A stretch of DNA of 64,000 bases, taken from positions 171,267 through 235,266 of the forward strand of contig CAVQDX010000040.1 of assembly GCA_963711335.1 (NCBI GenBank). The letters run 5' to 3'. The DNA is from an uncultured delta proteobacterium (lineage in GTDB: Bacteria > Desulfobacterota > Desulfomonilia > Desulfomonilales > Desulfomonilaceae). The position numbers were made by a program, and so were the translations under genes. Position 1 is the first letter of the stretch. Every line of letters starts with the position of its first letter. Below the pieces are notes generated by a model. It was given only the letters and a program-made list of their open reading frames with translations, ran no database searches and was not told where the DNA came from. Positions 2,093-23,778 of the stretch are shown piece by piece.

Positions 2093-3743
2093 CTAAACCG
2101 ACGACGCCAGAGCGTCACTGACTATCGTCTGGGCTTCCTCCAGGATTCGGCTCATATGATCCGGTCCCAGGAAGCTTTCCGCATAAATCTTGTAGATATT
2201 CTCGGTCCCTGACGGCCGTGCCGCAAACCATCCGTTCCCGGCCACCACTTTCAACCCTCCTATGGGAGCGCCATTGCCCGGCGCGTGGGTGAGGATGGCC
2301 TGGACTTTTTCGCCCGCCAACTCGGTGAGCTTAACCTGCTGGGGTGAGAGCTTCGCCAACTGTTCCTTTTGATCCGGAGTGGCCGACGCCTCAACACGTT
2401 CATAGGCAGGTTCACCGAACTCGACGCGTGAGTTCGTGGTACATTTCGCCGGGATCGCGTCCCATTCGGGCCGTGATCTCCGCCGCCAGCAAAGCCGGGA
2501 CAATTCCATCTTTGTCCGTCGTCCAGACCGCTCCATTTAGACGAGCAAAGGACGCCCCTGCGCTCTCTTCACCACCGAATCCAAGCGACCCTTCGAGAAG
2601 GCCAGCAACGAACCACTTGAATCCAACCGGCGTCTCGTAGAGCTTCCGGCCAAGCTTCTCCGTGACGCGATCAATCATCTGACTGCTCACCACTGTCTTG
2701 CCTACAGCCGCTTCCTTGCGCCACTTCGGCCGGTGTTGAAAGAGGTAGGAGATGGCGACGGAAAGGTAGTGATTGGGAGCAAGCAACCCGCCGCTCCTTG
2801 TAACAATCCCGTGGCGATCGTGGTCGGTGTCGCAGGCGAAAGCGATGTCAAAGCGATCCTTAAGGCCAATTAACTTCTGCATCGCATAGGGTGAGGATGG
2901 GTCCATACGGATCTGGCCGTCCCAATCCACAGTCATAAAACGGAAAGTCGGGTCTACGGCCTCGTTGACGATGGTGAGGTTCAACCCATAGCGTTCTGCA
3001 ATCGGCCCCCAGTAGCATACCCCGGCGCCGCCAAGAGGATCCACTCCCAGGCTGATCTTCGCGTCGCGAATGGCGTCCATGTCGATCACATTGCCGAGGT
3101 CGCTAACGTAGGCGTTGAGGTAATCGTGCCGTCGCGTCGTAGGAGACCGAAGAGCTTTCTCGAAAGGAATCCTCTTCAAACCCAGAAGGCCATTCTCGAG
3201 AAACTCGTTCGCCTTCGCCTCGATCCATGCGGTAACTGCGGATTCCGCGGGCCCGCCGTTTGGTGGATTGTATTTGAAGCCACCATCACGTGGAGGATTA
3301 TGCGAGGGAGTGATCACAATGCCGTCGGCGAGCCCTGTCTTGCGCCCGCGGTTGTAAGTGAGAATCGCGTGGGAGATTACGGGCGTCGGAGTATATTCTT
3401 CCTTCTCCGCGAGCATGACTTCCACGCCATTTCCCGCCAGCGTTTCCAGGGCGCTGGCAAGAGCGGGCACTGAAAGGGCATGCGTGTCCATGCCCAGAAA
3501 CAGGGGACCATCGATCTTCTGTCGCTCACGATACAGGCAAATAGCCTGAGTAATGGCAAGGATATGCCACTCGTTAAAGGACTTATCGAACGCTGAACCG
3601 CGATGCCCTGAGGTGCCGAACTTAACCCGTTGTTCCGGCGCCGAAGGATCAGGCGCCTCGGCATAATAGGCTGTGATCAGTCTAGGCACGTCAACCAGCA
3701 TTGATGTTTCGGCTGGCTTTCCCGCAAGGGGAGACACTTTCAT
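2093..3743 (-). pseudogene. pgm: phosphoglucomutase (alpha-D-glucose phosphate-specific), one frame break as sequenced
   Basis: ORF 2412..3743 carries typical PGM motifs (GTSGHRG, ITPSHNPP, GGEESAG). The C-terminus continues in ORF 2093..2536 (..EFGEPAYERVEA...GGLKVVAGNGWFAARPSGTENIYKIYAESF). The junction near 2422-2432 is repaired by deleting one base (..HELTR|EFGEP..). Confidence 0.85.
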
Positions 3744-4632: not shown

Positions 4633-5271
4633 TTATGTGGCTGCTCGGCTACGCAGGGACTCTCTCAAATAGGACCGTTCTCCCATCATGTGCAATAAAG
4701 GACCATGCGTAGCAATTTCCATAATGCTGATAGAGGCCACTGGCATGCTGATGCGATCGCGAAAACGCCCCACATCAATGCCTAACAGTGAGCACAGCAT
4801 TATTTGGATCGTGGCCTTATGAGAAACGACGAGCACATTGCCTGAAGCGCAGGTGTTCTCAATTTCTTCAAGCGCAAGTGAACTGCGCCGAGCAATATCG
4901 ATGCCTTTTTCTCCTCCGGTGGGAGCATTCCACCCTGGATCAGTTAACCATCGAACGTAGTCATCATGAAACTCACGATTAACATCTTCAGGAGTCTTAC
5001 CCTCCCATTGGCCAAAAGCAATTTCTTTCAACCCTTCTTTGAGTCGCATTTGTATTCCGACCGCCTCGCAAAGAGGTTTTGCCGTGGCCACTGCACGGCG
5101 TAGAGGACTGGAAAAGACAGCGGCCCATGGAAGGGATTTATATGCGTCGGCAAAATCCTCCGCCATCTGGCAACCTGCCGGGGTCAAATCCGGGTCGAGG
5201 GTCCCGCAGTAACCCCCTGTTTGGCTGGCTGTGGTTTCCCCATGTCGCAGAAAATAAATCATTAAATTCAT
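4633..5271 (-). CDS. histidine phosphatase family protein (phosphoglycerate-mutase-like, GpmB/CobC type)
   Basis: N-terminal YFLRHGET catalytic motif and a later VVSHKATIQ histidine motif. Intact 212 aa ORF. Confidence 0.75.
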   Translation of the reverse strand: MNLMIYFLRHGETTASQTGGYCGTLDPDLTPAGCQMAEDFADAYKSLPWAAVFSSPLRRAVATAKPLCEAVGIQMRLKEGLKEIAFGQWEGKTPEDVNREFHDDYVRWLTDPGWNAPTGGEKGIDIARRSSLALEEIENTCASGNVLVVSHKATIQIMLCSLLGIDVGRFRDRISMPVASISIMEIATHGPLLHMMGERSYLRESLRSRAAT

Positions 5272-5298
5272 AAGTTAGTCCTTGTCACGATAACCGGC

Positions 5299-5395
5299 GT
5301 GAGTTACGAACCGTCTACAACAGAAGGAGGAGGACGAAACGTGCCCGAAAAATGGACCATAAAATGCCCGATGTCTGTTTTATCAAGGGCTTAAG
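5299..5395. repeat. partial third copy (copy A) of the intergenic repeat family also found at 5722..5971 and 17969..18217
   Basis: Shares GTGAGTTACGAA (5299..5310, against 5816..5827 in copy B) and the core GTGCCC-N-GGACCA-N-AAATGCCCGATGTCTGTTTTATCAAGGGCTTA (from 5341). The spacing between the two motifs is 42 nt in both A and B. Confidence 0.6.
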
Positions 5396-5404
5396 AACTC
5401 AAGC

Positions 5405-5650
5405 CTAATTGTCGCCAAACAGTTGTTGGACTGCGCTTAGTATGCCGTAGGCCGCAAGTAGATCAATTCTTCCGGATTGCCTGACAAAATCCCTAAAATT
5501 TCTTGTGTAATAATGATTCGTGCCAAGCAAGGTAGTCAGACAATCAAACGCTTGCACCCTCCAGCGTCTGAACACGGTTGGATCAAAATCAGATTTGAGA
5601 GCGAGTGTGCCTGATTCCATCAAATCGTCGATTCGCTTTTCTGAACACAT
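5405..5650 (-). CDS. hypothetical 81 aa protein, apparently sigma-54 dependent
   Basis: Intact ORF with AGGGG about 6 nt before the ATG at 5650. A sigma-54 promoter lies about 70 nt upstream. No recognisable family. Confidence 0.45.
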   Translation of the reverse strand: MCSEKRIDDLMESGTLALKSDFDPTVFRRWRVQAFDCLTTLLGTNHYYTRNFRDFVRQSGRIDLLAAYGILSAVQQLFGDN

Positions 5651-5721
5651 CTTTGACCCCTATTAATTAGGAGTGACCAAGGAGAAACAATTTCTTTAAC
5701 CCTTGAGACTGACTGCAACAT

Positions 5722-5739
5722 AAGCACTTTCTGTGCCAA
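5722..5739 (-). promoter_or_regulatory. sigma-54 (RpoN) promoter, -24/-12 type
   Basis: The minus strand reads TTGGCACAGAAAGTGCTT. GG and GC are 11 nt apart, as in the consensus TGGCACG-N4-TTGC. It points at the 81 aa ORF. Confidence 0.65.
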
Positions 5740-5971
5740 CCTGTCATCCGATAGAGAATTCTCTAACAGAACAACTCGGTTAATTAGATAGTTAGGTATA
5801 GTGACGAAGCCTGGTGTGAGTTACGAAGGTGTGAAAGAGAAGGGAAACCAGAGAAATGTGCCCGACAAACGGGCCACACAATTCCTGATGTGTGTTTTAT
5901 CAAGGGTTTATGAATTGCCACGGTGTCTTAATGTCGGTCAATCTGATTGGCCTGCGGTGCGGTTTTCGCTC
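5722..5971. repeat. copy B of a regulatory cassette of about 250 bp (activator gene tail + conserved spacer + sigma-54 promoter)
   Basis: Co-linear with 17969..18217. Promoter at offset 0, TTAATTAGAyAGTTAGG at offset 58 (56 in C), GTGCCC at offset 136 (135 in C), TGTTTTATCAAGGG, GGTGTCTTAATGTmGGTCAATC, then the stop codon and the last codons of an activator gene. Confidence 0.7.
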
Positions 5972-5988
5972 TTAATTTCGATTCGCTT
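5938..5988 (-). pseudogene. relic 3' tail of a sigma-54 activator gene (last ~16 codons only)
   Basis: The minus strand reads KRIEIKSENRTAGQSD*, against KRFGITSENRTTDQDD* at the end of the intact activator 18184..20628. Upstream of this the frame contains stops and similarity is lost. The HD-GYP gene ends at 6083. Confidence 0.5.
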
Positions 5989-6082
5989 TACTCACAAAAT
6001 CCGCTTTTCTTGTTATCAAATAGATGGACGGAAGAAAAACTCCGGCGGATTAATGGAATTACGTCCCGAATCATGCGCTGGT

Positions 6083-7178
6083 TCAAGATCCGAGATGTTG
6101 GCTCTGGATCTTCTCTATTTCACCAAGGTTTTCTAGAAAGATTTCCAGTATTGCAGGATCAAAATGCTTTCCTTTGCCTTCCTTAATGATCTGCAGGGCT
6201 TTCTCGTTAGAAAACGCATCCTTGTAGGGCCGTCTTGTTGGTTAAGGCGTCGAAGACATCCGCCAATGGCAGCAATTCTCCCCATGAAAGGTATGTTTTC
6301 TCCTGACAAGTCCATTAGGGATAGCCACTGCCATCCCATTTTTCATGATGGGACAGCGCTATGGTCTCGCCTGACCTGAAGTAATTCCGACGAAGACCCG
6401 CTCAAGAATTTTTCCACCAATGACAGTGTGTCGCTTCATGATTTCCCATTCGGTCTGGATCCAATTTAGCCGGCTTGAGCAATATGGCGTCAGGGATGCC
6501 CATTTTCCCAACGTCATGCATCGGACTCGCATTGAGTATGATTTCACAATCATGTGGTGTGAGGCAGAGTCTGGTCGCCAGAAGATGACAATAACGGCTC
6601 ATGCGCCTGACATGAAGCCCTGTGTCTTCATCCTTGTACTCAGCCGCTATTGCCAGCCTCTCAATCGTTTCCAACTGGGCTTGGTAGGTTTGACGCTGTC
6701 CCTCGGCGGCATCTTTCAATGCCTGTTTCAAATGAATGGTTCGCTTTTCAACCATGTTCCCTCTAATTCGGCACTGGTACCGTTTAATTTCATCTTGCGT
6801 TTCCTTCATCCTGATCAGAGAAGCGGTACGCACCTTCAATTCCAGCTTGTCCACCGGCTTGGTGATAAAATCGTTTGCCCCTGCATCCACAGCTCTCAAC
6901 CGGTCTTCTTTTCCGGCCAAAGAGGTGACCATGCAGATGGGCACATCCAAGAATTCCTCGTCTTCACGGATTTTTTGAGCAACTTCAAAGCCATCCATGC
7001 CCGGCATCATAATATCGAGCAGCACGAGGTCGAAATCCAGCGTGACCATTGAGAGCGCCTGAAAACCGTCTTCGGCAAAATCAACTTCATATCCGATGCT
7101 CAATAGCATAGCCTCCAACAGTTCCCTGTTCAGTTCTTCGTCGTCCACTACTAAAATTCGGTGTGCTCGTTTCCTCAT
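6083..7178 (-). pseudogene. response regulator with HD-GYP phosphodiesterase output (RpfG-like), frame broken 7 times as sequenced
   Basis: REC domain (ILVVDDEELNRE..DLVLLDIMMPGMDG) then HD-GYP. Reading across frames gives HDVGKMGIPDAILLKPAKLDP|TEWEIMKRHTVIGGKILE|GSSSELLQ.|GETIALSHHEKWDGSGYP|NGLV|GENIPFMGRIAAI|ADVFDALTNK|RPYKDAFSNEKALQIIKEGKGKHFDPAILEIF...HLGS*. Junctions lie near 6455, 6398, 6374, 6319, 6304, 6263 and 6233. Confidence 0.85.
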
Positions 7179-7608: not shown

Positions 7609-10524
7609 CTAAGGAGCGCATGGGATAGTAAATGAGAAAACACTCCCGCTACCTTCTCCATCGCTTTCTATCCAGATCTTTCCGCCGTGCAATTCTACCA
7701 ATTTCCGCGTCAAAGCCAGCCCCAGGCCCGTGCCTTGATACTTCCGTGCAGTCCCCGAGTCGATCTGTTCGAACTCATCGAAAATCCGTTCTTGATCCTC
7801 CTGCTTTACGCCTATTCCATTGTCCCTTACGCTGAAGACAAGTTCGTCCTGCTTCCTTTTCCACTGTTACAGAAAGCTTGCCTCCATCCGGCGTGAATTT
7901 CGTGGCGTTTGACAGCAGGTTCAAGATAATTTGCTTGAGGCTGCGCTCGTCTGCCCAGACCATCAGATCGTCCTGAGCATAAAGACTGAGGTCCTGATTG
8001 CGATTAAGCGTCTTCTCCCGCACCAGCAGAAGACATTCCTCCAGAATCTTTCTGACTTTGACTGTCAGAGCAACGCAATTCCGTTTTTTTTGCCTCAATC
8101 TTTGCCAAATCCAAAATGTCATTTATGAGGCTGAGTAGGTGACGTCCAGCTATGAGTATATTGTCGACATACCTGACCTGTTTCGCATTCAAGTCCCCAA
8201 AAGTCTTATCATGAAGAACTTCTGAGAACCCAATTACTGAATTCAGAGGCGTACGAAGTTCGTGACTCATGCTTGCGAGGAATTCGCTCTTTGCCCTATT
8301 TGCCGCTTCTGATAACTCGATGATCTTCTTGGCCTTTTCGCAAATCGTGTTCGTATCGCTTCGTTTCGGATAAGTCTCTTGCTATTGATGAAACGCCCAA
8401 GATTTTTCCGAAAGAGTCCTTTATCGGAGAGACGGACAGGAGAACTGGGGACCTCGTTGCCATCCTTGGCAACTCTGGTGGTTTCAAGATTTTCTGTTCG
8501 CTCTCCTAGCCTTACCATCTCAAGAAGATGCGTCACCTGAGCGTGGAGTCTCGGGGGTATGATTGCGAATACAGATTGCCCCTTTGCTTCTTTAGCAGTA
8601 AGACCGTACATCTTTTCTGCCTCCCTGTTCCAACTGACGATTGTACCGTCCAGATTCTGGCCCATTATGGCCTCGTCCGAGGACTCGACTATGGCAGCAA
8701 GGAAAGCCCGGTCACCCTCGGCCTTCACGCGTTCAGTAACGTCCCTGACAAGAGCTGCAAAATGCGCCTCATGTTTATTTGAATATTCGCTCACTGATAT
8801 CTCCACGGGGAACGTGCCGCCATCTTTTCTAAAGGCAATTGTGTTACGGATTCTTTCATTTACTCCTGTTCCCAATGCCTTCAACTGAGGCTTCAGAGAT
8901 TCGTCTTGTACCCTGGAATAGAGATCCGGCATGAACAGATTAACATTTTTCCCTATCATCTCTTGGGCCGGGCAGCCGAACAGTCTCTCAGTCGCTGGGT
9001 TAACCATTTCTATGGTACCCTGATCATCGAAACTAATTATACCTTCCAATGCAGACTCGAAGATTGATAGAATCTTTGCCTCGCTTTCCTCAAGCGCTGT
9101 GCGGACCGCTTTCTGCTCGGTCTGGTCCCTGAAGACGAGGACTACTCCACTGATGGCCCCGTCTTGGCTGATTGGGGCCGCGCAGTATGCGATAGACCGC
9201 TCGGCTCCGTCTCGTGCTATGAGCAGGGTGTCATTGGCCCATTCCACCACCGTCCCCTCAGTGAGGAACTCGCCGCACAGGGTTCTGTGCCGGCTTACTG
9301 GGTTTCTCGTTCACGATGCGCAAAACATCATCTATGGTTTTGCCTTTGCCCTCGTCCTCCGTCCATCCGGTAAGTCGCTCAGCCACAGGGTTCATCTGTT
9401 GCACCAGAGTTCCTGTGTCAGTGGTTATCACCGCGTCACCGATAGAATAAAGGATAGTCCGATACCGCTCCTCAATCAGCCGGCGCTCCTGCTCCGACCT
9501 GTAGAGGTTCTTATACATAGAGGCCTGACGATTTCGGTAGCCATAGGCGCTACCAGTTCCTACTACCAGAATCAAAGCCCCGGCGAACAACGCTGCAATG
9601 ATGCCCCGAAAATGAGCCCCCTGAAGGATCTCGGTCTTGTCCACTTGGGCCACGATAAACCAGCGCGAATTGGGAATATGTTTCAGATAGGCAAGCACAT
9701 CTTCTCCGCGGTAGTCCTTCCCCTCGAATAGCCCTTCCTTTCCTAATATTGCCTGAGTGGCCGGAAGTGACGTGTCGAGGACATGTCTGAAGGTGAGCGG
9801 AGTGTTGGGCCGGTGACGGACTTGATTCAAGTAAAGAACCTCATCGCCGTCTCTGCGGACCAGAAGCGTCTCGGTCGTACGACTGAGGGTGGGCCACGAA
9901 CGAATCAAAGGGTACAGGAGCGATTCGGCATTGCTCCTCAGGACCGCCACGGCAATGGCCTTGCCCTCTTGGCCCAGGACAGGCGCCACCGCCGCGAGTT
10001 GAATAATACCCTGGGATGATGACGCATACAGCTCGCTCAATGTCGCAGAGCCCTTGGTAAGAGCTTCCTGTACGGCCTCCCTCTCAACCGGGCTCAACGG
10101 TTCCGGCTGGGGCTTGGCAGACAAGAGCATGTTACCGTCGAGGTCGAACAACACGATGTCGGCGTAACTTCTTGTTTGTTGCTCAAGCGACCAATCTATC
10201 CTGCATCGCTTTCTGGAGTAAATTGTCGCTCTGGTCCAGGAGCCACTCAGATAATGCGTCTCTCTCAAAAGGACCGTTCGCCAAAATCCAGACGTCGCCA
10301 AGTCGTTGTTTCCTCCACATTACTATCTCATCGATCTTCAACTTGACGACGCTCGCCAGGTCCTCGTAATTCTCTTTCTGTATTCGCTCAGCCTCATGGG
10401 TGTAGTATGTGTAACCTGCGATCAAGAGCACTGCGGTCGCTCCAAAAAAAAGAACTAACCAGGGTAATCTGGTACGGATGGAAAAGCCTCCTTCTCGTTT
10501 GCGGTCAGGGATATTGATAGGCAT
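7609..10524 (-). pseudogene. membrane sensor histidine kinase (periplasmic sensor, TM, 3 PAS, HisKA, HATPase), frame broken 6 times as sequenced
   Basis: Pieces 10183..10524, 9258..10301, 8267..9250, 8296..8487, 8004..8270, 7775..8122 and a final frame ending CAP* at 7609 join into one kinase (..EAANRAKSEFLASMSHELRTPLNS.., ..[15 protein letters not shown].., ..[44 protein letters not shown]). Junctions lie near 10201, 9265, 8448 (run of 4), 8340, 8084-8091 (run of 8) and 7855. Confidence 0.85.
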
Positions 10525-13268: not shown

Positions 13269-13349
13269 AAACAGCCATTTGAGTCGAGGGTTGGAATCCG
13301 AGAGGCCAATAATACTTCACAAACGAAATTGCGAAGGCGGGATCGTTCA

Positions 13350-16257: not shown

Positions 16258-17673
16258 CTATTGCGCAGCGTTTGGCGCTTCTTTCTTTTGTTTGTCAGAT
16301 GGCTCATTTAGTCTCACCAACAGCCATTCTTGCGTACGTTCCTTACCAAGATGAACCAAAACCCCTGTTTCGTCCTTGGTAAGGTTGTAAATCCCCGTCT
16401 CCATTATCACGGCGTTTTCATTCTTGTCGGCAAAGGTCCAGACAGCTCTCTGAGATTCCTTATCAACCATGCCTTTGATCGGTTTGGCCGTATTGTCCTC
16501 GCTATTGAAGTATGTTCCCTGTATGGCGCCTTCCTTGTTGACAGCCAGTTGAAGGACCATGTTAGAAGGTTTGTTAGCCTCCTGAGTGACAGCGAAAACC
16601 CCTAACGGCATCCATTGGTCCTTGTCATCCGTGATTTTTGGCGCTTTGTCTATTATCCGGACAGCCTGGTCATAATACTCCGGAGCAGAGCAAAGACGTC
16701 GACCATTGAGATAAACGTAATCATCCGCATAATAAAAATTGGAGCCATAGTCATAGTACAGGGGCGTTCCCCAGCCCCATGGGACCCATGAACTCAGGGC
16801 AATCCATGTGGCGGGGCCCCACCAATACGCCCAGGGTCGGTTTGGCCAGATGTGATTGTGCCAGTAATAGTTGTTGAGATACGGGTGGTTAGTCCTCCAA
16901 TTCGTATTAAATACGTCGTTATAGCGCTGGGAATAGTTACTTCGGAGTTGCTGGGTTGTCTGAGGGCTTATTTTACTAGTCAGGCTCGTGCCTTTTTGCG
17001 GGAAATTACCCGCAACGGGGCTTGTTCCTGCCACCGATCCGCCCTTGGCGAATTGATCCAGAGCGATTGCGCCTGCGGCTACCCCCAACGTAGCGGCTCC
17101 AACTTTGCCTAGCCCGGGTTTTGCGCTACCAACATTGGTCTTGGGCAGGTTAAGATGTTCCTGTAACTGACTCTGGGTCGGCTTCTTTCCAGACGTTACA
17201 TTTGAGGACCTGTTTACGCTGGACGGCCTAGATCTGGTGTTGGACGATCGGTTGACACTGGATGGCGTCGACATGGTGTTTGAGGACCGGTTTACGCTAG
17301 ACGGCCCCGATCTTATGTTGGAGGATCGGTTTACACCGGATGGGCCAGACCTGGTGTTTGAAGGCTGGTTGACACTGGATGGCGCCGACATGGTGTTTGA
17401 GGACCGGTTTACGGTGGACGGCCCCGACCTGGTATTTGAAGAGCGACTTACACCGGATGGGCTCGCCCTGGTGTTTGAAGGCCGGCTCACAGACGGAGTA
17501 GCCCGATTTGCGCCTCCTCCACCACCGCCGCCTCCATGAAATACGGCGCCTCCTCCGCCACCACCGCCGCGACCTCCTCCGTGGTCTCCGCCTCTGCCCT
17601 GGGCGACCGCGGAAGGCGCCATTAAGGCTAGAATTGATACAAAGGCAATTAAAAGATACGATATTTTTTTCAT
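16258..17673 (-). CDS. secreted repeat protein (signal peptide, poly-Gly, 8 x 13-aa Ser/Asn/Arg repeats, Trp/Tyr-rich segment, C-terminal globular domain)
   Basis: Intact 471 aa ORF: MKKISYLLIAFVSILALMAPSAVAQ, then GGGRGGGGGGG..GGGGGGGG, then eight units like PSSVNRSSNTRSG, then NYYWHNHIWPNRPWAYWWGP...WVPWGWGTPLYYDYGSNFYY. Confidence 0.6.
   Translation of the reverse strand: MKKISYLLIAFVSILALMAPSAVAQGRGGDHGGGRGGGGGGGAVFHGGGGGGGGANRATPSVSRPSNTRASPSGVSRSSNTRSGPSTVNRSSNTMSAPSSVNQPSNTRSGPSGVNRSSNIRSGPSSVNRSSNTMSTPSSVNRSSNTRSRPSSVNRSSNVTSGKKPTQSQLQEHLNLPKTNVGSAKPGLGKVGAATLGVAAGAIALDQFAKGGSVAGTSPVAGNFPQKGTSLTSKISPQTTQQLRSNYSQRYNDVFNTNWRTNHPYLNNYYWHNHIWPNRPWAYWWGPATWIALSSWVPWGWGTPLYYDYGSNFYYADDYVYLNGRRLCSAPEYYDQAVRIIDKAPKITDDKDQWMPLGVFAVTQEANKPSNMVLQLAVNKEGAIQGTYFNSEDNTAKPIKGMVDKESQRAVWTFADKNENAVIMETGIYNLTKDETGVLVHLGKERTQEWLLVRLNEPSDKQKKEAPNAAQ
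17179..17502. repeat. tandem repeat, about 8 copies of a 39 bp unit inside CDS 16258..17673
   Basis: The 13-aa periodicity is visible in the protein (PSGVSRSSNTRSG / PSTVNRSSNTMSA / PSSVNQPSNTRSG ...) and in the antisense shadow ORF 17237..17539 (DRFTLDGPDLM.. repeated). Confidence 0.8.
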
Positions 17674-17968
17674 TGCGGCCTCTCCTTTAGAATTAGATGC
17701 GGAACCTGGTATAATTACTTTGATTGGACCTGTTTCTCGCGAATAAAATGGGTCTCTGCTTGTTCAAAATATGTACGTTTACGACCCGCGTTGAGGTTCA
17801 GAATTGAGGTGACTTTTTGAAAAAGAGATCTAACAGTCGATTAGATCGCCTCATCATTCCGATATATTAAACCAGACAAACACATCAAAGGCGCTCTAGA
17901 GCCTTTCAATGCTCTATCAATCCTTCTTGTTTGATGGAATGGAGATAGTTTAACCCTTGTCGTATATG

Positions 17969-17986
17969 AAGCACATTTCGTGCCAA
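17969..17986 (-). promoter_or_regulatory. sigma-54 (RpoN) promoter, -24/-12 type
   Basis: The minus strand reads TTGGCACGAAATGTGCTT, with GG and GC 11 nt apart. It points at 16258..17673 through a leader of about 285 nt. Confidence 0.65.
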
Positions 17987-18217
17987 CTGTCCCACACAGA
18001 ACCATATGCTTGAAAAAACCATAACTAATTAGACAGTTAGGATTAGCTATAGAATTTGGAGTTCGTTATGAAGCGTCTACGACAGAGGCTTAACGGGAAG
18101 AACGTGCCCTAAGAACGGACCACTAAATGCCTGATGTATGTTTTATCAAGGGGTTAGAAACTAGCCTGGTGTCTTAATGTAGGTCAATCATCCTGGTCTG
18201 TGGTACGGTTTTCGCTC
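17969..18217. repeat. copy C of the regulatory cassette of about 250 bp (sigma-54 promoter + conserved spacer + 3' end of the intact activator gene)
   Basis: See copy B. Includes CTAATTAGACAGTTAGG (18025..), GTGCCCTAAGAACGGACCAC (18104..), TGTTTTATCAAGGGG, GGTGTCTTAATGTAGGTCAATC and the activator stop at 18184. Confidence 0.7.
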
Positions 18218-20628
18218 GTAATCCCAAAACGCTTCATGTGACGATACAGAGAATCTCGGGCTATACCAAGCGTACGGGCTGCGGATCTTCTATTGCCTTC
18301 GCAACGTCGGAGCGCCTCCAAAACCAGGGATTTGATCACCTCATCCGTCACGTCGTGAAGCGTCCGTTCTTGCAACGGGAAACTGGAAACGTGAGACCAG
18401 TCCTCAAGATCTGCTTTGCCAGAAGGCAGCGTCAAGCTTAAGCTATGCCCGTCGGATAGCATCAATGAGCGCTCGAGAGCGTTCCGCAACTCCCTGACGT
18501 TGCCGGGCCAATCATATCTAGTAAGCCCAATTGCGAAGGCCGGATCAACATACGGGAGAGTAGTTAGTTGAAGTTCCACCGCTAGCCGCGACATGATCTC
18601 TTCCGAGAGTATGGGGATGTCTTCGATCCTGTCACGAAGGGGTGGCACGGTTATCCCGAAAACGTTAATTCTATAGAAGAGGGCGGACAGGAATCGGCCT
18701 TCCTCAACCTCATTATCGAGACTCCTGTTGGTAGCCGAAATGATCCGCGCATTCACATTAATGGGTTTTTCACCGCCTACACGAAGGAATGACCTTGTGT
18801 CCAGAAACGTAAGAAGCTTGGACTGCAACGAGAGTGGAAGCTCTCCTATTTCGTTGAGCAGGAGAGTGCCCCCTTCCGCCAACTCCAGAAGTCCTCGTTT
18901 ACGCCTATGCGCTCCTGTGAATGAGCCACGCTCATGTCCGAAAAGCTCTGATTCGGCTAATTCCCTTGATATGGCAGCGCAATTCAGTGAAAAGTAGGGG
19001 CCAAGCGCACGCTTCGAATGGTCGTGGATCCACCGCGCCAAATAGTCTTTGCCGCTTCCGCTCTCCCCCTGAAGTAGTACTGCCCCGTCACTAGCGGCGG
19101 CCGAGCGAGCCTCGCGCATAGTCGCCCTCATGGCTTCCGAGGGGTAGCTTTCAAAAACTGCTTTGGGGGTAGGCGATACCCTCGCACGCTCCGTCACATC
19201 ACGAGAAATCCCGAATACACCGATAATTTTACCCTCAGCGTTATGAAGAGGTCTGAGGACAGTATTCAGGGTCAACGAGACGCCCTTTCTCCGGACAGTG
19301 TGTTCTCTTTCGATGGACTCTCCGGCGAGTACGCGGAGATCCAGCTGTCGAAGCTGGCGCCCAACTTCCTCGCCATAGATGTCCTTGGGTTTGCGTCCAA
19401 TGATTTTGGACGTGTCAAGTTCAACCATTTTGGCCATCGCTGGGTTCACTTGTGTGTATTCAAAATTACTATTCATAATGAAAATCATGTCCTGGGCGCC
19501 GTCAAATATTGCCCTGAAACGCTCTTCACTGCGACGCAAAGCTTCCTCATCCCGCTTCCGTTCGGTAATATCAAGATATGTTCCCGCCAACCGCAACGGT
19601 TTGCCGTCTTTAGCCCTGGCAACGACTGAACCACGGGCCAACACCCACTTCCATTCGCCGAACCTGGGCCTGACCCGAAATTCCGCCTCGTATAAAGGTG
19701 TGCGACCTTCCAGGTGGGCATTTAAAGTCTCCATAACCAGAGACCAATCGTCTGGATGAGTTAGATTCTCCCACCAAGGGAGATGTGACTGAATCTCATC
19801 TAGAGTGAATCCTAGCATTTCGGCCAAACGCTGATCGCAAATAGTCTCACCTGTCTCAAGGTTGTAGTCCCACGACCCCAGGCCCGCTCCGCTCAATACG
19901 AGGTTCAGCCTTTGCTCACTTCGCCCCAGTTCGTCTTCCGCTCGGTGGCGCTCGACAATTTCAAGTTCAAGTTCTTTATTGGTCTTCAATAAATCGGATG
20001 TGCGTTCTGTTACTCTAAGTTCGAGTTCATCGTGAGCCCGCAGCGCTGACTCCTCTGCGAGCTTACGGTCGGTAATGTCCAATATGGCTGTTCGAAATCG
20101 GCCGGCCCCGCCTTCAGTGTCTTCTATTATTACGCTTTGCAATTGAGCGTGGAACCAACCGCCATCAGGTTTTACAAATCTTATTTCGCAACGGTGTTGG
20201 GTGTTGGTTTGAAAGACCTGCTTACGGTGGAGATAGAAAACATCTTGATCATCCTTATGAATAAAACTCGTCAACGGCTTGTCAATTAAAGATGTTCTCT
20301 CAATTCCAATTAGGCTCGCTCCGGTGAGGTTAGCTTCCAGAATAATCGCATTCTTGTCTAATGTGAAATATCCAACCGGCGCATAGTCGAATAAATCCAA
20401 ATACCTTTCTCTGGACCGCTCCGCTTCCTCTTGAGCCCGATGGAGTTCCTCATTCTGCATTTCCAGCTCGATCTGATGGACCCACAACTCCTGAATGAGT
20501 TTTTGCATTTCCTCTTGGGTCAGAGCTGGTAAATCGGGGATTCTTTCTCCAGATTTTCCGAGAACGGCAGCCTCTGCCCTAGATCGCAGACCGGTGCGAT
20601 TAATCTTGGGATCCTCATCTTTTGTCAT
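18184..20628 (-). CDS. sigma-54-dependent transcriptional activator (3 PAS, AAA+, Fis-type HTH)
   Basis: Intact 814 aa ORF. AAA+ motifs GESGSGKD, ESELFGHERGSFTGA (GAFTGA-type loop) and WPGNVRELRN. C-terminal HTH AARTLGIARDSLYRHMKRFGI. Confidence 0.92.
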   Translation of the reverse strand: MTKDEDPKINRTGLRSRAEAAVLGKSGERIPDLPALTQEEMQKLIQELWVHQIELEMQNEELHRAQEEAERSRERYLDLFDYAPVGYFTLDKNAIILEANLTGASLIGIERTSLIDKPLTSFIHKDDQDVFYLHRKQVFQTNTQHRCEIRFVKPDGGWFHAQLQSVIIEDTEGGAGRFRTAILDITDRKLAEESALRAHDELELRVTERTSDLLKTNKELELEIVERHRAEDELGRSEQRLNLVLSGAGLGSWDYNLETGETICDQRLAEMLGFTLDEIQSHLPWWENLTHPDDWSLVMETLNAHLEGRTPLYEAEFRVRPRFGEWKWVLARGSVVARAKDGKPLRLAGTYLDITERKRDEEALRRSEERFRAIFDGAQDMIFIMNSNFEYTQVNPAMAKMVELDTSKIIGRKPKDIYGEEVGRQLRQLDLRVLAGESIEREHTVRRKGVSLTLNTVLRPLHNAEGKIIGVFGISRDVTERARVSPTPKAVFESYPSEAMRATMREARSAAASDGAVLLQGESGSGKDYLARWIHDHSKRALGPYFSLNCAAISRELAESELFGHERGSFTGAHRRKRGLLELAEGGTLLLNEIGELPLSLQSKLLTFLDTRSFLRVGGEKPINVNARIISATNRSLDNEVEEGRFLSALFYRINVFGITVPPLRDRIEDIPILSEEIMSRLAVELQLTTLPYVDPAFAIGLTRYDWPGNVRELRNALERSLMLSDGHSLSLTLPSGKADLEDWSHVSSFPLQERTLHDVTDEVIKSLVLEALRRCEGNRRSAARTLGIARDSLYRHMKRFGITSENRTTDQDD

Positions 20629-20902: not shown

Positions 20903-21169
20903 TCATTCATAATGGCTCCACATTCTGAGAATTTTGACCACTCTTAGGTCGTCCAGAACCTGGTATACGATACGATGTTGAATAGTTAAACGTCGAGAAT
21001 AGGCGCCTGAAAGGTCCCCCACCAATTTCTCAAACGGGGGAAAATTTTGGAATGGGTTTCCTCTGATGATGTTTAAAAGTTCCTCAGCTTTTGATTTCAA
21101 TCCAGCTTCTCGAATCTTCCTGGCGTCCTTCTGCGCTTTGACCGTGAAGACCAGTCTCCATTTTACCAT
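20903..21169 (-). CDS. yoeB: type II toxin, YoeB/Txe family
   Basis: 88 aa protein with ..LVGDLSGAYSRRLTIQHRIVYQVLDD..VKILRMWSHYE, typical of YoeB. Overlaps the antitoxin gene by 7 nt. Confidence 0.85.
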   Translation of the reverse strand: MVKWRLVFTVKAQKDARKIREAGLKSKAEELLNIIRGNPFQNFPPFEKLVGDLSGAYSRRLTIQHRIVYQVLDDLRVVKILRMWSHYE

Positions 21170-21405
21170 CCGGGGTTCTCGCTACATTCTTCCACCGGAG
21201 TTTCCAGCCCCTGGCGAATCGATTCGCTCATGCCAGGCATGGACATCAGATAGAGAGTCTCCTGTATTGAACGCCAGTCTTCCTCGGAGATTAAAATTGC
21301 GTTCCCTCGTTTCCCGGAAATCTGAACCGGCTCATGAGATGACGCTACTTCCTTTATAAGTTTGTAAAGTTGAGACCTGGCTTGGGTAACATTTATGGTA
21401 TTCAT
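21163..21405 (-). CDS. yefM: type II antitoxin, Phd/YefM family
   Basis: 80 aa protein with MNTINVTQARSQLYKLIKEV...PVQISGKRGNAILISEEDWRSIQETLYL. Confidence 0.85.
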   Translation of the reverse strand: MNTINVTQARSQLYKLIKEVASSHEPVQISGKRGNAILISEEDWRSIQETLYLMSMPGMSESIRQGLETPVEECSENPGW

Positions 21406-21614: not shown

Positions 21615-23193
21615 TTAGGCGCTCTTTTGAAACTTTTCAGCCTCCATCCGCTTCAACTCTCTTTTTAAAATTTTTCCTGTGGCGGTCTTCGGTAACTCAT
21701 CTATTGTTGTAAACTCAATTTGGCGAGGGGCTTTGTAGGCAGCCATGTTGGCTTTAGCCCATCTTATCATTTCCTCCTCCGTAGCTGTATGGCCTGGGGC
21801 CAGCACCACAAAGGCCTTTGGGAATCTCTCCCTTTGCCCTGTCGGGAATACCTATAACCACGGCTTGCAGAATCTTAGGATTTTCCGATAAATAGCTTTC
21901 AACTTCACTGGGATAGATATTGTATCCCCCACACACCAGCATGTCGTCTTTCCTGTCGACTATGTACAGGAGACTATCGCTGTAACTGTCGCCCTTTAAG
22001 TACGCAAGGTCGCCTGACTTCCACCAACCATCCTGAATCTTTGCCGCAGTCATTTCAGGGTCTTTCCAGTAACGATTGATTACACCCGGCCCTTTACACC
22101 AAAGTTCGCCTATCTCACCATTTTGCAAATCATTGCCATCAGGCCCCACAACTTTGATCTGCCAGCCCGGAGCAGGCCAACCGGGGCTTCCGGGCGTATA
22201 GTGCCCGAATCGTGTATGTGTAACACTACTGCCCGACTCTGTAGCTCCGTAACATTCTATCAACCCAAGCTTAAAAATTTCTTCGATCTGCCGACCCAAT
22301 TCCGCAGGCAGGGAAGATCCAGCGGCCTGACCAAGCCTAAGGCTTGAAATGTCGTAAATGTCCTTGTTCTTGAGGTACTCCTCGATAAGATATGTCCACA
22401 TCGTGGGCGTACCCATAAAATGAGTAACCTTGTGTTTGGTAATGAGTTCCAGAGTATCCTTCGGGAAAAACCTTTGTAACGTAACTACGGTGGCCCCTGC
22501 ACAAAGAGTCGGAAGCACCGTAATCACCATGTATACATGAAAAAAAGGCGTTCCCGTAAGCACAAGATCTTCATCTGTCATAGGGACCACGTGTCCCGAG
22601 TTTACTCTTGCCTGGAACAACCATCCGCCATGCGTGGACAGAGCGCCTTTTGGTCTACCCGTGGTGCCGGAAGTATAAAGTAACGCCAGCCCATGATCAT
22701 CGGGAACGTCTAACGCCGAGAAATCAGAATTGTTTTTGGAGATCAGCTCCTCGTAGACCAAAACGTTGCGATTGACCCCATTACCCGCAATGCCCTGAAC
22801 TGAGATTATTTTTTTGACCGAGGGGAGTTTGTCGAGAATAGGTAAAATATTTTCTTCCGTTTCGGTCGCCATCCCAATAATGACCATAGCTTCGCTGTGG
22901 TTAATAATGTACTCAATTTCCATCTTTTTCAGCATAATGTTGAAAGGAACAGAAATCGCTCCCATCTTGGCGATGGCCACAAAGGCCACAATGAATTCAG
23001 GAACGTTTCGGAGATAAAGCGCCACTCGATCTCCCTTTTTAACACCCAATCCATGAAGGGCGTTAGCCATAGCGTTTACCTGATCGTTCAGCTCCGAATA
23101 CGTATATCTGGCTCCAGTGACCCCATCGATAATAGCCGTCCTGCTTGGTATTCGGTCGGCGTTCTTCTCAACACATTCATGGCCTAAGTTCAT
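21615..23193 (-). pseudogene. AMP-forming acyl-CoA synthetase/ligase (ANL superfamily), one frame break as sequenced
   Basis: Motifs LLYTSGTTGRPKG, GYGATE-like YGATESG and WWKSGDL. The C-terminus continues in ORF 21615..21809. The junction ..GEIPK|AFVVLAPGHTATEEEMIRW.. at 21815-21816 is repaired by removing one base. GGAGGAGAGGAG precedes the ATG at 23193. Confidence 0.85.
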
Positions 23194-23258
23194 CCCTGTA
23201 ACTCCTCTCCTCCACATAAGGTTAGCTTGCTTAAACTTTCAGCCGAACATGGGTTTAT

Positions 23259-23275
23259 AAGCAAGGTCCGTGCCT
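23259..23275 (-). promoter_or_regulatory. sigma-54 (RpoN) promoter, -24/-12 type
   Basis: The minus strand reads AGGCACGGACCTTGCTT (GGCACG-N4-TTGCT), with GG and GC 11 nt apart. It lies about 65 nt upstream of the acyl-CoA synthetase ATG. Confidence 0.7.
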
Positions 23276-23424: not shown

Positions 23425-23778
23425 TTAGGCGTCTAAACTATATAAATCATAACGTTTGAGGCGCTTCCGGAGTGTTGGGCGGGAAATTCCCAGCATTCTC
23501 GCCGCGGCCGAAAGGTTTCCATTGGTTTCAGTCATCGCTTTCTTTATATGTATTTTCTCAACTTCATCCAGTGAACCGTGCCCTGATGAATCCAAAGGCT
23601 CCGCTCACGAAGCCGTCAATACGGCTTGAACGGCGTCGGCCAGCAGCACTGAGCTGCGAGATGCCAGGATTGCCTTGGTAAGAACATTTTTTGACTCCCG
23701 AACATTTCCTGGCCAGGAATATGCCTTCAGAATGTTCATTACCCTGTTTTCTAGCTCGCGTGACTTTAGATCGGATGA
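23425..23778 (-). pseudogene. 5'-truncated sigma-54 activator relic (last ~115 codons, in-frame TGA)
   Basis: One frame reads ..LKSRELENRVMNILKAYSWPGNVRESKNVLTKAILASRSSVLLADAVQAVLTAS-TGA-AEPLDSSGHGSLDEVEKIHIKKAMTETNGNLSAAARMLGISRPTLRKRLKRYDLYSLDA*. The TGA is at 23605..23607. There are stops immediately upstream (23779..23784), and no Walker A or GAFTGA region is present. Confidence 0.75.

Follow-up and report, generated by a model that had tools for sequence, protein, structure and literature searches.

A duplicated cassette next to a sigma-54 activator gene of an uncultured Desulfomonilaceae bacterium, probably a paralogous enhancer-promoter region

At sigma-54 promoters the closed complex at the -24/-12 element needs an AAA+ activator that is bound 80-200 bp upstream and looped in, often with integration host factor (IHF). 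The nifH promoter with NifA and the Pu promoter with XylR are the classical enhancer-dependent promoters of this type with IHF-assisted looping. Here, we describe a cassette found on the minus strand of a 64,000-nucleotide (64-kb) stretch of contig CAVQDX010000040.1 (the window). The contig belongs to an uncultured member of the Desulfomonilaceae, a lineage of uncultured or poorly studied sulfate reducers and dehalogenators. One full copy of the cassette (copy A) directly follows the gene of an 814-aa sigma-54 activator and a second full copy (copy B) lies elsewhere in the window. Probably these stretches are paralogous and represent sigma-54 enhancer-promoter regions that belong to one regulon and have spread by duplication and recombination. 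Behind this reading stand the homology of the copies, their anatomy, the family of copies in relatives and the gene contexts, all of which were observed directly.

A closely comparable system has been described in Desulfovibrio vulgaris, namely orp1/orp2 with the enhancer-binding protein (EBP) DVU2106 (PMC3897727). At orp1 the EBP site is located at -131, IHF sites lie between the EBP site and the promoter, and IHF is required; IHF-assisted sigma-54 activation is thereby documented in a Desulfobacterota species (PMC3897727). The cassette resembles orp1/orp2 in its -24/-12 promoter, in a dyad 100-150 bp upstream with an IHF-like site between the two, in the activator gene that adjoins its target, and in the type of activator, a bacterial EBP (bEBP) with an AAA+ domain and a Fis-type helix-turn-helix (HTH). 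Unlike orp1/orp2, the cassette is conserved to about -257, contains, farther upstream than the dyad, another IHF site that matches the consensus perfectly, overlaps the last codons of the activator with its first block (block I) and has a conserved box at +1 to +11; in addition, its sites are predicted from sequence. By this comparison the cassette would in function be a standard sigma-54 enhancer-promoter region, and it leaves the general view of sigma-54 promoter function unchanged. An earlier note on this DNA stated that no described element with this layout was known to its author. However, the order of activator gene, upstream activating sequence (UAS), IHF site and -24/-12 promoter is a textbook one, as in D. 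vulgaris orp (PMC3897727).

With regard to evolution, putative mobile promoters have been catalogued, that is, whole promoter regions reused within a genome (Nijveen, Matus-Garcia and van Passel 2012, PMC3575422). The criterion of that catalogue was an identity of 80% or more along a minimum of 50 nt, between -150 and -50 upstream of non-paralogous genes of one genome.

Copies in the window and their block anatomy

The window contains three copies of the cassette:
17949-18217, minus strand: copy A, full cassette, directly after the 814-aa activator gene
5695-5971, minus strand: copy B, full cassette, with about 15 relic activator codons before it and no activator open reading frame (ORF)
5263-5393, minus strand: copy C, partial cassette (blocks III-VI only), without a -24/-12 element

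Minus-strand positions 17949-18240 (A) and 5695-5995 (B) align co-linearly. The repeat search of the window gave the A/B pair as 143 nt at 76% identity, and a blastn search of the window with the A region gave B at 72% over 197 nt (E 2.6e-24). The co-linearity described in the earlier note was thus reproduced, and every motif quoted there was found where it had been placed. The two copies counted in that note are real, but copy C had been missed; it aligned with A at 77% over 106 nt (E 1.3e-15), and a 62-nt core was common to A, B and C at 81-84% identity in the repeat search. An nhmmer profile search of the window revealed no cassette beyond A, B and C at E < 1e-3. The duplication had also been recognized correctly, but its size of about 250 bp was underestimated. 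Since conservation continues past the -12 element into the start-site box CAAGGGTTAAA, the unit comprises about 270-280 bp.

Eight conserved blocks were found in all full copies in fixed order and spacing. Their positions refer to a predicted start site placed 12 nt downstream of the G in the GC element, and the sequences listed are those of copy A, with mean pairwise identities:
18202-18217 (A) and 5956-5971 (B), minus strand: block I, GAGCGAAAACCGTACC (family GAGCGAAAACCG.ACC), -257 to about -242, identity 0.79
18169-18189 (A) and 5923-5943 (B), minus strand: block II, GATTGACCTACATTAAGACAC (family GATTGACC.ACATTAAGACAC), -229 to -209, identity 0.86
18130-18156 (A) and 5884-5910 (B), minus strand: block III, TAACCCCTTGATAAAACATACATCAGG (family TAACCCCTTGATAAAACA.ACATCAGG), -196 to about -170, IHF match centred near -190
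18104-18123 (A) and 5858-5877 (B), minus strand: block IV, imperfect dyad GTGGTCC-N7-GGGCAC (family GTGGyCC-N7-GGGCAC), about -163 to -144
18057-18073 (A) and 5812-5828 (B), minus strand: block V, CTTCATAACGAACTCCA (family CTTCnTAA..CA..CCA), moderate conservation, identity 0.70
18025-18040 (A) and 5780-5795 (B), minus strand: block VI, CTAACTGTCTAATTAG (family CTAACtATCTAATTAG), about -80 to -65
17970-17986 (A) and 5723-5739 (B), minus strand: block VII, predicted sigma-54 promoter TTGGCACGAAATGTGCT (TTGGCAC-N5-GTGCT), -26 to -10, with GG at -24 and GC at -12
17949-17959 (A) and 5695-5705 (B), minus strand: block VIII, start-site box CAAGGGTTAAA (CAAGGGTTAaA), predicted +1 to +11, identity 0.89

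The -24/-12 element is present in all full copies of the family. Promoter A (TGGCACGAAATGTGCT, 17970-17985) and promoter B (TGGCACAGAAAGTGCT, 5723-5738) have one mismatch each to TGGCAC-N5-TTGCW, and only one further site with no more than one mismatch was found in the window, at 23260-23275. The pattern TGGCAC-N6-TGCW occurs at two sites in the 64 kb, exactly at promoters A and B, compared with 0.14 expected; the canonical -24/-12 promoters proposed earlier are thus the sole sites of this kind in the window.

Upstream of the promoter, block III is the best-conserved block. Its plus strand reads TATCAAGGGGTTA, a perfect match to the IHF consensus WATCARNNNNTTR, and a perfect match was found in block III of 15 of the 16 copies. 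Over these 16 copies the consensus was matched 18 times in all, compared with 0.7 in shuffles. Block VI is also IHF-like, with one mismatch to the consensus on the plus strand and a perfect match in two family members (TATCAGATAGTTA), and it occupies the classical position between the UAS and the promoter. The dyad of block IV, conserved in 16 copies and in distant orthologues, is the best candidate for the UAS, that is, the activator binding site. Block II, which in copy A includes the activator stop TGA (18184-18186), is a candidate distal activator site, and block I overlaps the tail codons SENRT of the activator and is kept in coding and non-coding copies. With a dyad at about -153, an IHF consensus and a -24/-12 promoter, the spacer has the predicted anatomy of an enhancer with a bending site, as had been suggested earlier. 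At the other end of the cassette, block VIII matches the core of block III as its inverted complement: together, TAACCC(C)TTG of block III and CAAGGGTTA of block VIII form an inverted repeat of 9-15 nt (15 nt at 87% in copy B).

Two further interpretations of the blocks were tried. In the first, blocks I, II and IV were considered as repeats of one motif, and a position weight matrix of block IV ranked the inverted block I second in most copies. However, block I scored no more than 7-13 bits, too little for significance in 2 x 390 positions, and the copies are non-independent, so that this similarity remains a hint. In the second, a tandem sigma-70 promoter on TTGACC of block II was considered, and no sigma-70-type site was found on the cassette strand in a scan.

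The conserved part could also act as RNA, with the dyad serving as an intrinsic terminator of the upstream gene or the whole as a structured 3′ untranslated region or small RNA. The dyad of copy B was called terminator-like in a scan (GCCCGTTTGTCGGGC followed by ACATTTCTCT), and the dyad hairpins of some copies go down to -12 kcal/mol. However, the dyad of copy A was not called by the terminator scan. The dyad hairpins range from -1.4 to -12.3 kcal/mol, with pairing broken in several copies without compensation, the tails after the dyad are pyrimidine-rich and contain no U-runs, and a terminator would account for only one of the eight blocks. RNA structure, for which the earlier note had proposed a covariance model, was not borne out, as the RNAalifold consensus of the whole cassette was only -8 (sense) and -13 (antisense) kcal/mol over 318 columns. 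No Rfam match was found in the window at the gathering threshold, and 11 loci gave one tRNA only. In RNAalifold runs with column-shuffle controls, only the dyad and the III/VIII inverted repeat, which is long-range, gave rise to low z-scores, and the whole consensus energy also stemmed from these two. An RNA function is thus very unlikely. A hidden small ORF was also rejected, since every frame of every copy contains at least one stop.

The mean pairwise identity was 0.82 for the blocks and 0.52 for the linkers, a mosaic pattern that does not look like the uniform decay of a recent duplication. Nevertheless, one may assume that copies B and C are decaying, non-functional leftovers of a duplication, that the similarity reflects limited time and that only copy A works. 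Copy B has relic codons only in place of an activator gene, copy C has lost the promoter, and many ORFs in the window are disrupted. Against this, none of the eight blocks is missing from copy B, although its linkers have diverged to about 50-60%, and the gene of an activator with the same HTH lies 12 kb from B, which would make activation in trans possible. In copy C, blocks III-V are intact and the block VI-like end contains the ATG of the histidine-phosphatase gene (4633-5271). The arrangement of B, small gene and C was also found in loci L003 and L017, with the small ORF intact in all three genomes, which again speaks for maintenance of these copies. Many of the disrupted ORFs would be more simply explained by long-read indel errors. 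Taken together, decay of B and C is an improbable explanation.

Genes split into overlapping or adjoining ORF pieces were found at 453-1840, 2093-3743, 6402-7178 and 7775-10524, corresponding to glycogen phosphorylase, phosphoglucomutase, an HD-GYP response regulator and sensor kinases. The same genes are split in a related MFD (Microflora Danica) metagenome-assembled genome (MAG), and their orthologues are intact in metagenome contig L017. Judging by this comparison, the split genes look like long-read indel errors in the MAG and not real pseudogenes. The remaining window is ordinary chromosome with alaS, mnmE and many sensor kinases.

The cassette family and the history of its copies

Copies in relatives were searched for by a 20-nt core scan of species-representative genomes, by a looser pattern on JGI metagenome contigs and then with an nhmmer profile. 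The core scan revealed true copies in two MAGs labelled "uncultured delta proteobacterium" and on one contig labelled Omnitrophota. The profile gave 16 full and 3 partial copies, the full ones being 47-94% identical pairwise. Six further copies were found behind more distant orthologues or paralogues of the activator, and the family comprises at least 22 copies. The duplicated regulatory unit postulated earlier was thus found in related genomes before unrelated genes, and a count of its copies in relatives showed downstream genes of stress type. The copy number is low, with three in the 64 kb and a handful per related MAG, and the family was found in one lineage only. Note that the contig JBAZTA010000008.1 (loci L008 and L009) is labelled Candidatus Omnitrophota, but its cassettes and their neighbours are 80-94% identical to the Desulfomonilaceae-like MAG MFD01299 (L004); this contig is probably mis-binned.

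In relatives, too, the cassette was found directly after activator genes, namely after a 65% orthologue (L023, where another copy lies 4 kb further downstream), a 63% orthologue (L025), an activator of the 933-aa class (L028) and one of a 746-aa REC class (L029, two copies). Behind a 46% orthologue (L024) the cassette is degenerate, with blocks I, II, VII and VIII visible, and in a Desulfomonile tiedjei-like MAG (L030) only the promoter TGGCAT-N5-TTGCT followed by GGGTTATA is left. Blocks II, IV, VII and VIII are retained even in these deep comparisons, as are the CTAACC starts of blocks III and VI.

The history of copy B was elucidated from related loci. The earlier note had read the activator ends at the two copies (SENRTTDQDD-stop and SENRTAGQSD-stop) correctly, but it had taken both for ends of activator genes, and at copy B only a relic without an activator ORF was found. 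In contig L017 (WSSedB1Ca) a full 753-aa REC-PAS-AAA-HTH activator ending in KRFGIMSENRTADEDD and a stop (MSENRTADEDD-stop) is located directly before the B-type cassette. It follows that the codons before copy B are genuine remains of a paralogous activator that has been lost. The gene order in L017 is activator, B-type cassette, small gene, copy C, phosphatase and PRC-barrel gene, without the frameshifts of the window.

Copy B itself was compared with two cassettes, one heading a different gene cluster in a related MAG (L004_7840) and one in the orthologue of locus B (L003_4388). The 5′ flank of copy B up to block I is 97% identical to the former and 49% to the latter; after block IV the identities are 61% and 86%, respectively. 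This points to copy B as a mosaic formed by homologous recombination of two cassettes, with a crossover inside blocks II-IV.

Relics of donor flanks were found at other copies as well. At L009 the codons KRFGI are retained behind a small ORF, at L001 the left end of the cassette gives the last codons (ESENQTKN-stop) of a glucose-6-phosphate isomerase gene, and at L008 a relic of this isomerase is present without the gene. Such relics and the mosaic junctions are a signature of duplication and recombination, not of transposition. In the proposed history, the ancestral unit would have stood directly behind an activator gene whose last codons ran into block I. Its copies would have arisen by segmental duplication that took along the last ~15 activator codons, followed by recombination between copies. 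The family may thus serve as a natural example of regulon growth, in which a whole enhancer-promoter is copied from behind the activator to new genes and the copies then become substrates of recombination.

Transposition was considered as another way of spreading. Correia, ERIC and BIME/RIP repeats are intergenic elements located at the ends of genes, and promoters or IHF sites can be part of them. A non-autonomous mobile element of this kind (a miniature inverted-repeat transposable element (MITE) or Correia-like element, or a 'mobile promoter'), inserting at gene ends together with a promoter, would be consistent with several cassettes per genome before unrelated genes, with the 9-15 nt inverted repeat TAACCC(C)TTG / CAAGGGTTA that flanks the promoter region and with the isomerase end codons supplied by the cassette at L001. 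However, this inverted repeat is internal: homology does not stop at its left arm but continues for ~85 nt upstream and takes in blocks I-II and the relic codons. No terminal inverted repeats, which define MITE- and Correia-type elements, were found at the ends of the homology, neither target-site duplications nor a transposase link were seen, and a distant blastn search against plasmids and phages gave no match. The low copy number within one lineage also argues against such an element, as do the neighbour-gene relics and mosaic junctions, which duplication and recombination predict. Besides, Correia, ERIC and BIME/RIP repeats have terminal inverted repeats and occur in many copies, and the cassette also differs from them in that its predicted promoter is of the sigma-54 and not the sigma-70 type. 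A mobile element is thus extremely doubtful, and the suggestion of a mobile unit made earlier was not upheld in the transposable sense: duplication and recombination suffice.

In its evolution the cassette fits, by analogy, promoter reuse and the putative mobile promoters (PMC3575422), with which it shares homologous non-coding upstream regions before non-homologous genes and the absence of a recognised mobile element. It differs from them in several respects. The cassettes are 47-94% identical, in part below the 80% cut-off, and are ~280 bp long with a whole enhancer; genes after some cassettes are paralogous small genes, and a mechanism of duplication and recombination is visible. When the criterion of that catalogue was applied to the window, the 62-nt core of A, B and C reached 81-84%, but the whole A/B pair only 72-76%, and the cassette lies farther from the start codon than -150 to -50.

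The activator and the proposed mechanism

The gene linked to copy A was characterized by its ORF and translation and by Pfam search:
18184-20628, minus strand: sigma-54 activator (bEBP) of 814 aa

The protein contains three PAS domains, an AAA+ sigma-54 interaction domain, an AAA lid and a Fis-type HTH at 767-801 (Pfam matches Sigma54_activat, 9.4e-61, HTH_8, 1e-08, PAS_4, PAS_3 and AAA_lid_14), and its sigma-54 contact loop reads GSFTGA (ERGSFTGA in the translation). An acidic tail of 13 aa follows the HTH, and its last eleven positions (SENRTTDQDD and the stop) overlap the cassette. The activator has homologues that carry the labels Desulfomonilaceae or Desulfomonile and fall into four domain classes of ~813 aa (PAS-only), ~933 aa, ~753 aa (with REC) and ~623 aa (with REC). 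All four classes have in common the HTH ending in GIARDSLYRHMKRFGI, and their acidic tails follow the pattern SENxTxDxxD.

The codons AGC GAA AAC CGN ACC are conserved whether a copy is coding or non-coding, third positions included except in CGN, and the four codons that follow (xDxxD) are conserved in translated copies only. This would correspond to a dual constraint, at the DNA level on block I and at the protein level on the acidic end, with the activator gene ending inside the enhancer of its own target.

All these characteristics allow us to propose the following mechanism. PAS- or REC-type EBPs with one nearly identical Fis-type HTH, here the 814-aa protein, would bind the upstream blocks, namely the dyad of block IV at about -153 and probably also blocks I-II (-257 to -209), a possible second platform split off by block III. 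Bends of the IHF type, at about -70 in block VI and about -190 in block III, would loop the activator onto sigma-54 RNA polymerase bound at TTGGCAC-N5-GTGC, and the transcript would start at the CAAGGGTTA box. Copy A would be the activator-linked copy. The REC-type activator of copy B is gone, and this copy presumably depends on an activator in trans; the 814-aa protein could take this role because several sensor classes of the activator share the HTH. Copy C may be an inert remnant transcribed in the B operon, or else an extra enhancer ~330-480 bp downstream of promoter B.

Several points weigh against the reading of the cassettes as paralogous sigma-54 enhancer-promoters. Promoter activity and the assignment of proteins to blocks are what we infer from the sequence, and our confidence in the latter is lower than in the identification of paralogous sigma-54 promoters. 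The contrast of 82% and 52% between blocks and linkers is partly circular, because the blocks were chosen after the conservation had been viewed. Nor are the shared blocks independent observations, because the copies are related by descent. The perfect IHF consensus of block III is located upstream of the dyad and not between the UAS and the promoter, and the ATCAA core of this block is lost in the most distant copies (L024, L025). Block VIII and its inverted match to block III lie outside the classical sigma-54 model. In the vicinity of copy C no other sigma-54 promoter with one mismatch or less was found, and neither rpoN nor IHF/HU genes were seen in the window or in the loci of relatives. 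The eight ordered blocks with their coordinates provide a testable cis-regulatory map for a family of orphan enhancer-binding proteins.

A toxin-antitoxin-like pair (20903-21405) is located upstream of the activator in the window. At L023, L024 and L028 the gene directly upstream of the activator encodes a ~1000-aa fusion of CheB methylesterase, CheR methyltransferase and PAS, which may be part of the sensory input. A C-terminal relic of another sigma-54 activator was found at 23437-23730 (minus strand); it contains an HTH ending in RMLGISRPTLRKRLKRYDL, has no intact N-terminal part and aligns at 33% identity with residues 702-805 of the 814-aa activator. After this relic, upstream of the gene of an AMP-binding enzyme (21754-23217), lies the sigma-54-like promoter AGGCACGGACCTTGCT at 23260-23275 (minus strand). 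This region was considered as another cassette copy and rejected: its layout is the same, but its DNA is not homologous. In addition, 41 nt at 13304-13344, between a superoxide dismutase gene and a kinase gene, are 76% identical to 18506-18546 in the activator coding region (residues 695-708). This may be a small relic of an activator gene or a chance similarity.

Downstream genes and the candidate regulon

The first genes after the two predicted promoters are the following:
16258-17673, minus strand: gene of a 471-aa secreted Gly-rich protein, first gene after promoter A, with a leader of ~290 nt
5405-5650, minus strand: gene of an 81-aa protein without a Pfam family, downstream of predicted promoter B

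Downstream of promoter A the 471-aa protein gene is followed by that of a 196-aa protein, and neither protein has a Pfam match. The order after promoter B is the 81-aa gene, copy C, histidine phosphatase and PRC-barrel protein. The 81-aa protein is a member of a family of small proteins (66-90 aa, no Pfam match) that was found after many cassettes in relatives. According to Pfam, the genes downstream of A, B and C are mutually unrelated. Over the whole family, the downstream genes include YflT, DUF3309, CsbD, DUF5670, PRC-barrel, Transgly_assoc and low-affinity iron permease, and this set resembles, by analogy, the general-stress genes known from other phyla.

General stress regulons are known that depend on alternative sigma factors, such as SigB of Bacillus subtilis and the alphaproteobacterial EcfG/PhyR system. 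The cassette genes have in common with these regulons the small proteins CsbD, YflT, DUF3309, PRC-barrel and Transgly_assoc (GlsB/YeaQ-type). The predicted driver is different, as the cassette would be driven by sigma-54 with PAS/REC enhancer-binding proteins and not by an alternative factor of the sigma-70 family. No sigma-54 (RpoN) regulon of these gene families was reported in the texts returned by full-text literature searches, nor did a term search of one sigma-54 regulon survey reveal one. In the proposed mechanism, the cassettes of the window and of relatives would join small general-stress-type genes into one sigma-54 regulon. Small stress-type proteins (CsbD, DUF3309, YflT, PRC-barrel) under sigma-54 control in the Desulfomonilaceae can thus be regarded as a candidate new regulon. 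A more far-reaching and tentative possibility is that the cassette is the cis-regulatory signature of an undescribed general-stress-type sigma-54 regulon of this family, in which several sensor classes, PAS-only, extended-PAS and REC-PAS, with one DNA-binding module converge on a propagating 280-bp module, and that the +1 box and leader motifs add an extra layer of control.

The 471-aa protein includes a poly-Gly stretch, and a 13-aa unit (SxVNRSSNTRSGP; 39-nt period) encoded at 17189-17500 occurs in it in at least eight tandem copies. Within the leader downstream of promoter A, a hairpin resembling a terminator (AAAGGCTCTAGAGCGCCTTT, with GATGTGTTTG after it) was found at 17887-17906 (minus strand), ~55-70 nt past the predicted start. 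The output of promoter A might therefore be a short transcript, or attenuation might occur before the 471-aa gene.

Ahead of small genes, the leaders at about +30 to +110 contain CTGAAACGTTTTTTGAG .. GGACC .. GCAGTAACTGC .. ATCTCCG.AGGT.TCA..GG.GG. These motifs match no Rfam family, and a common leader fold was not demonstrated, because the RNAalifold consensus of eight sequences was only -1.9 kcal/mol. The motifs are common to L001, L004, L008, L020, L006, L009, L023 and L024 and could represent a subtype-specific leader element.

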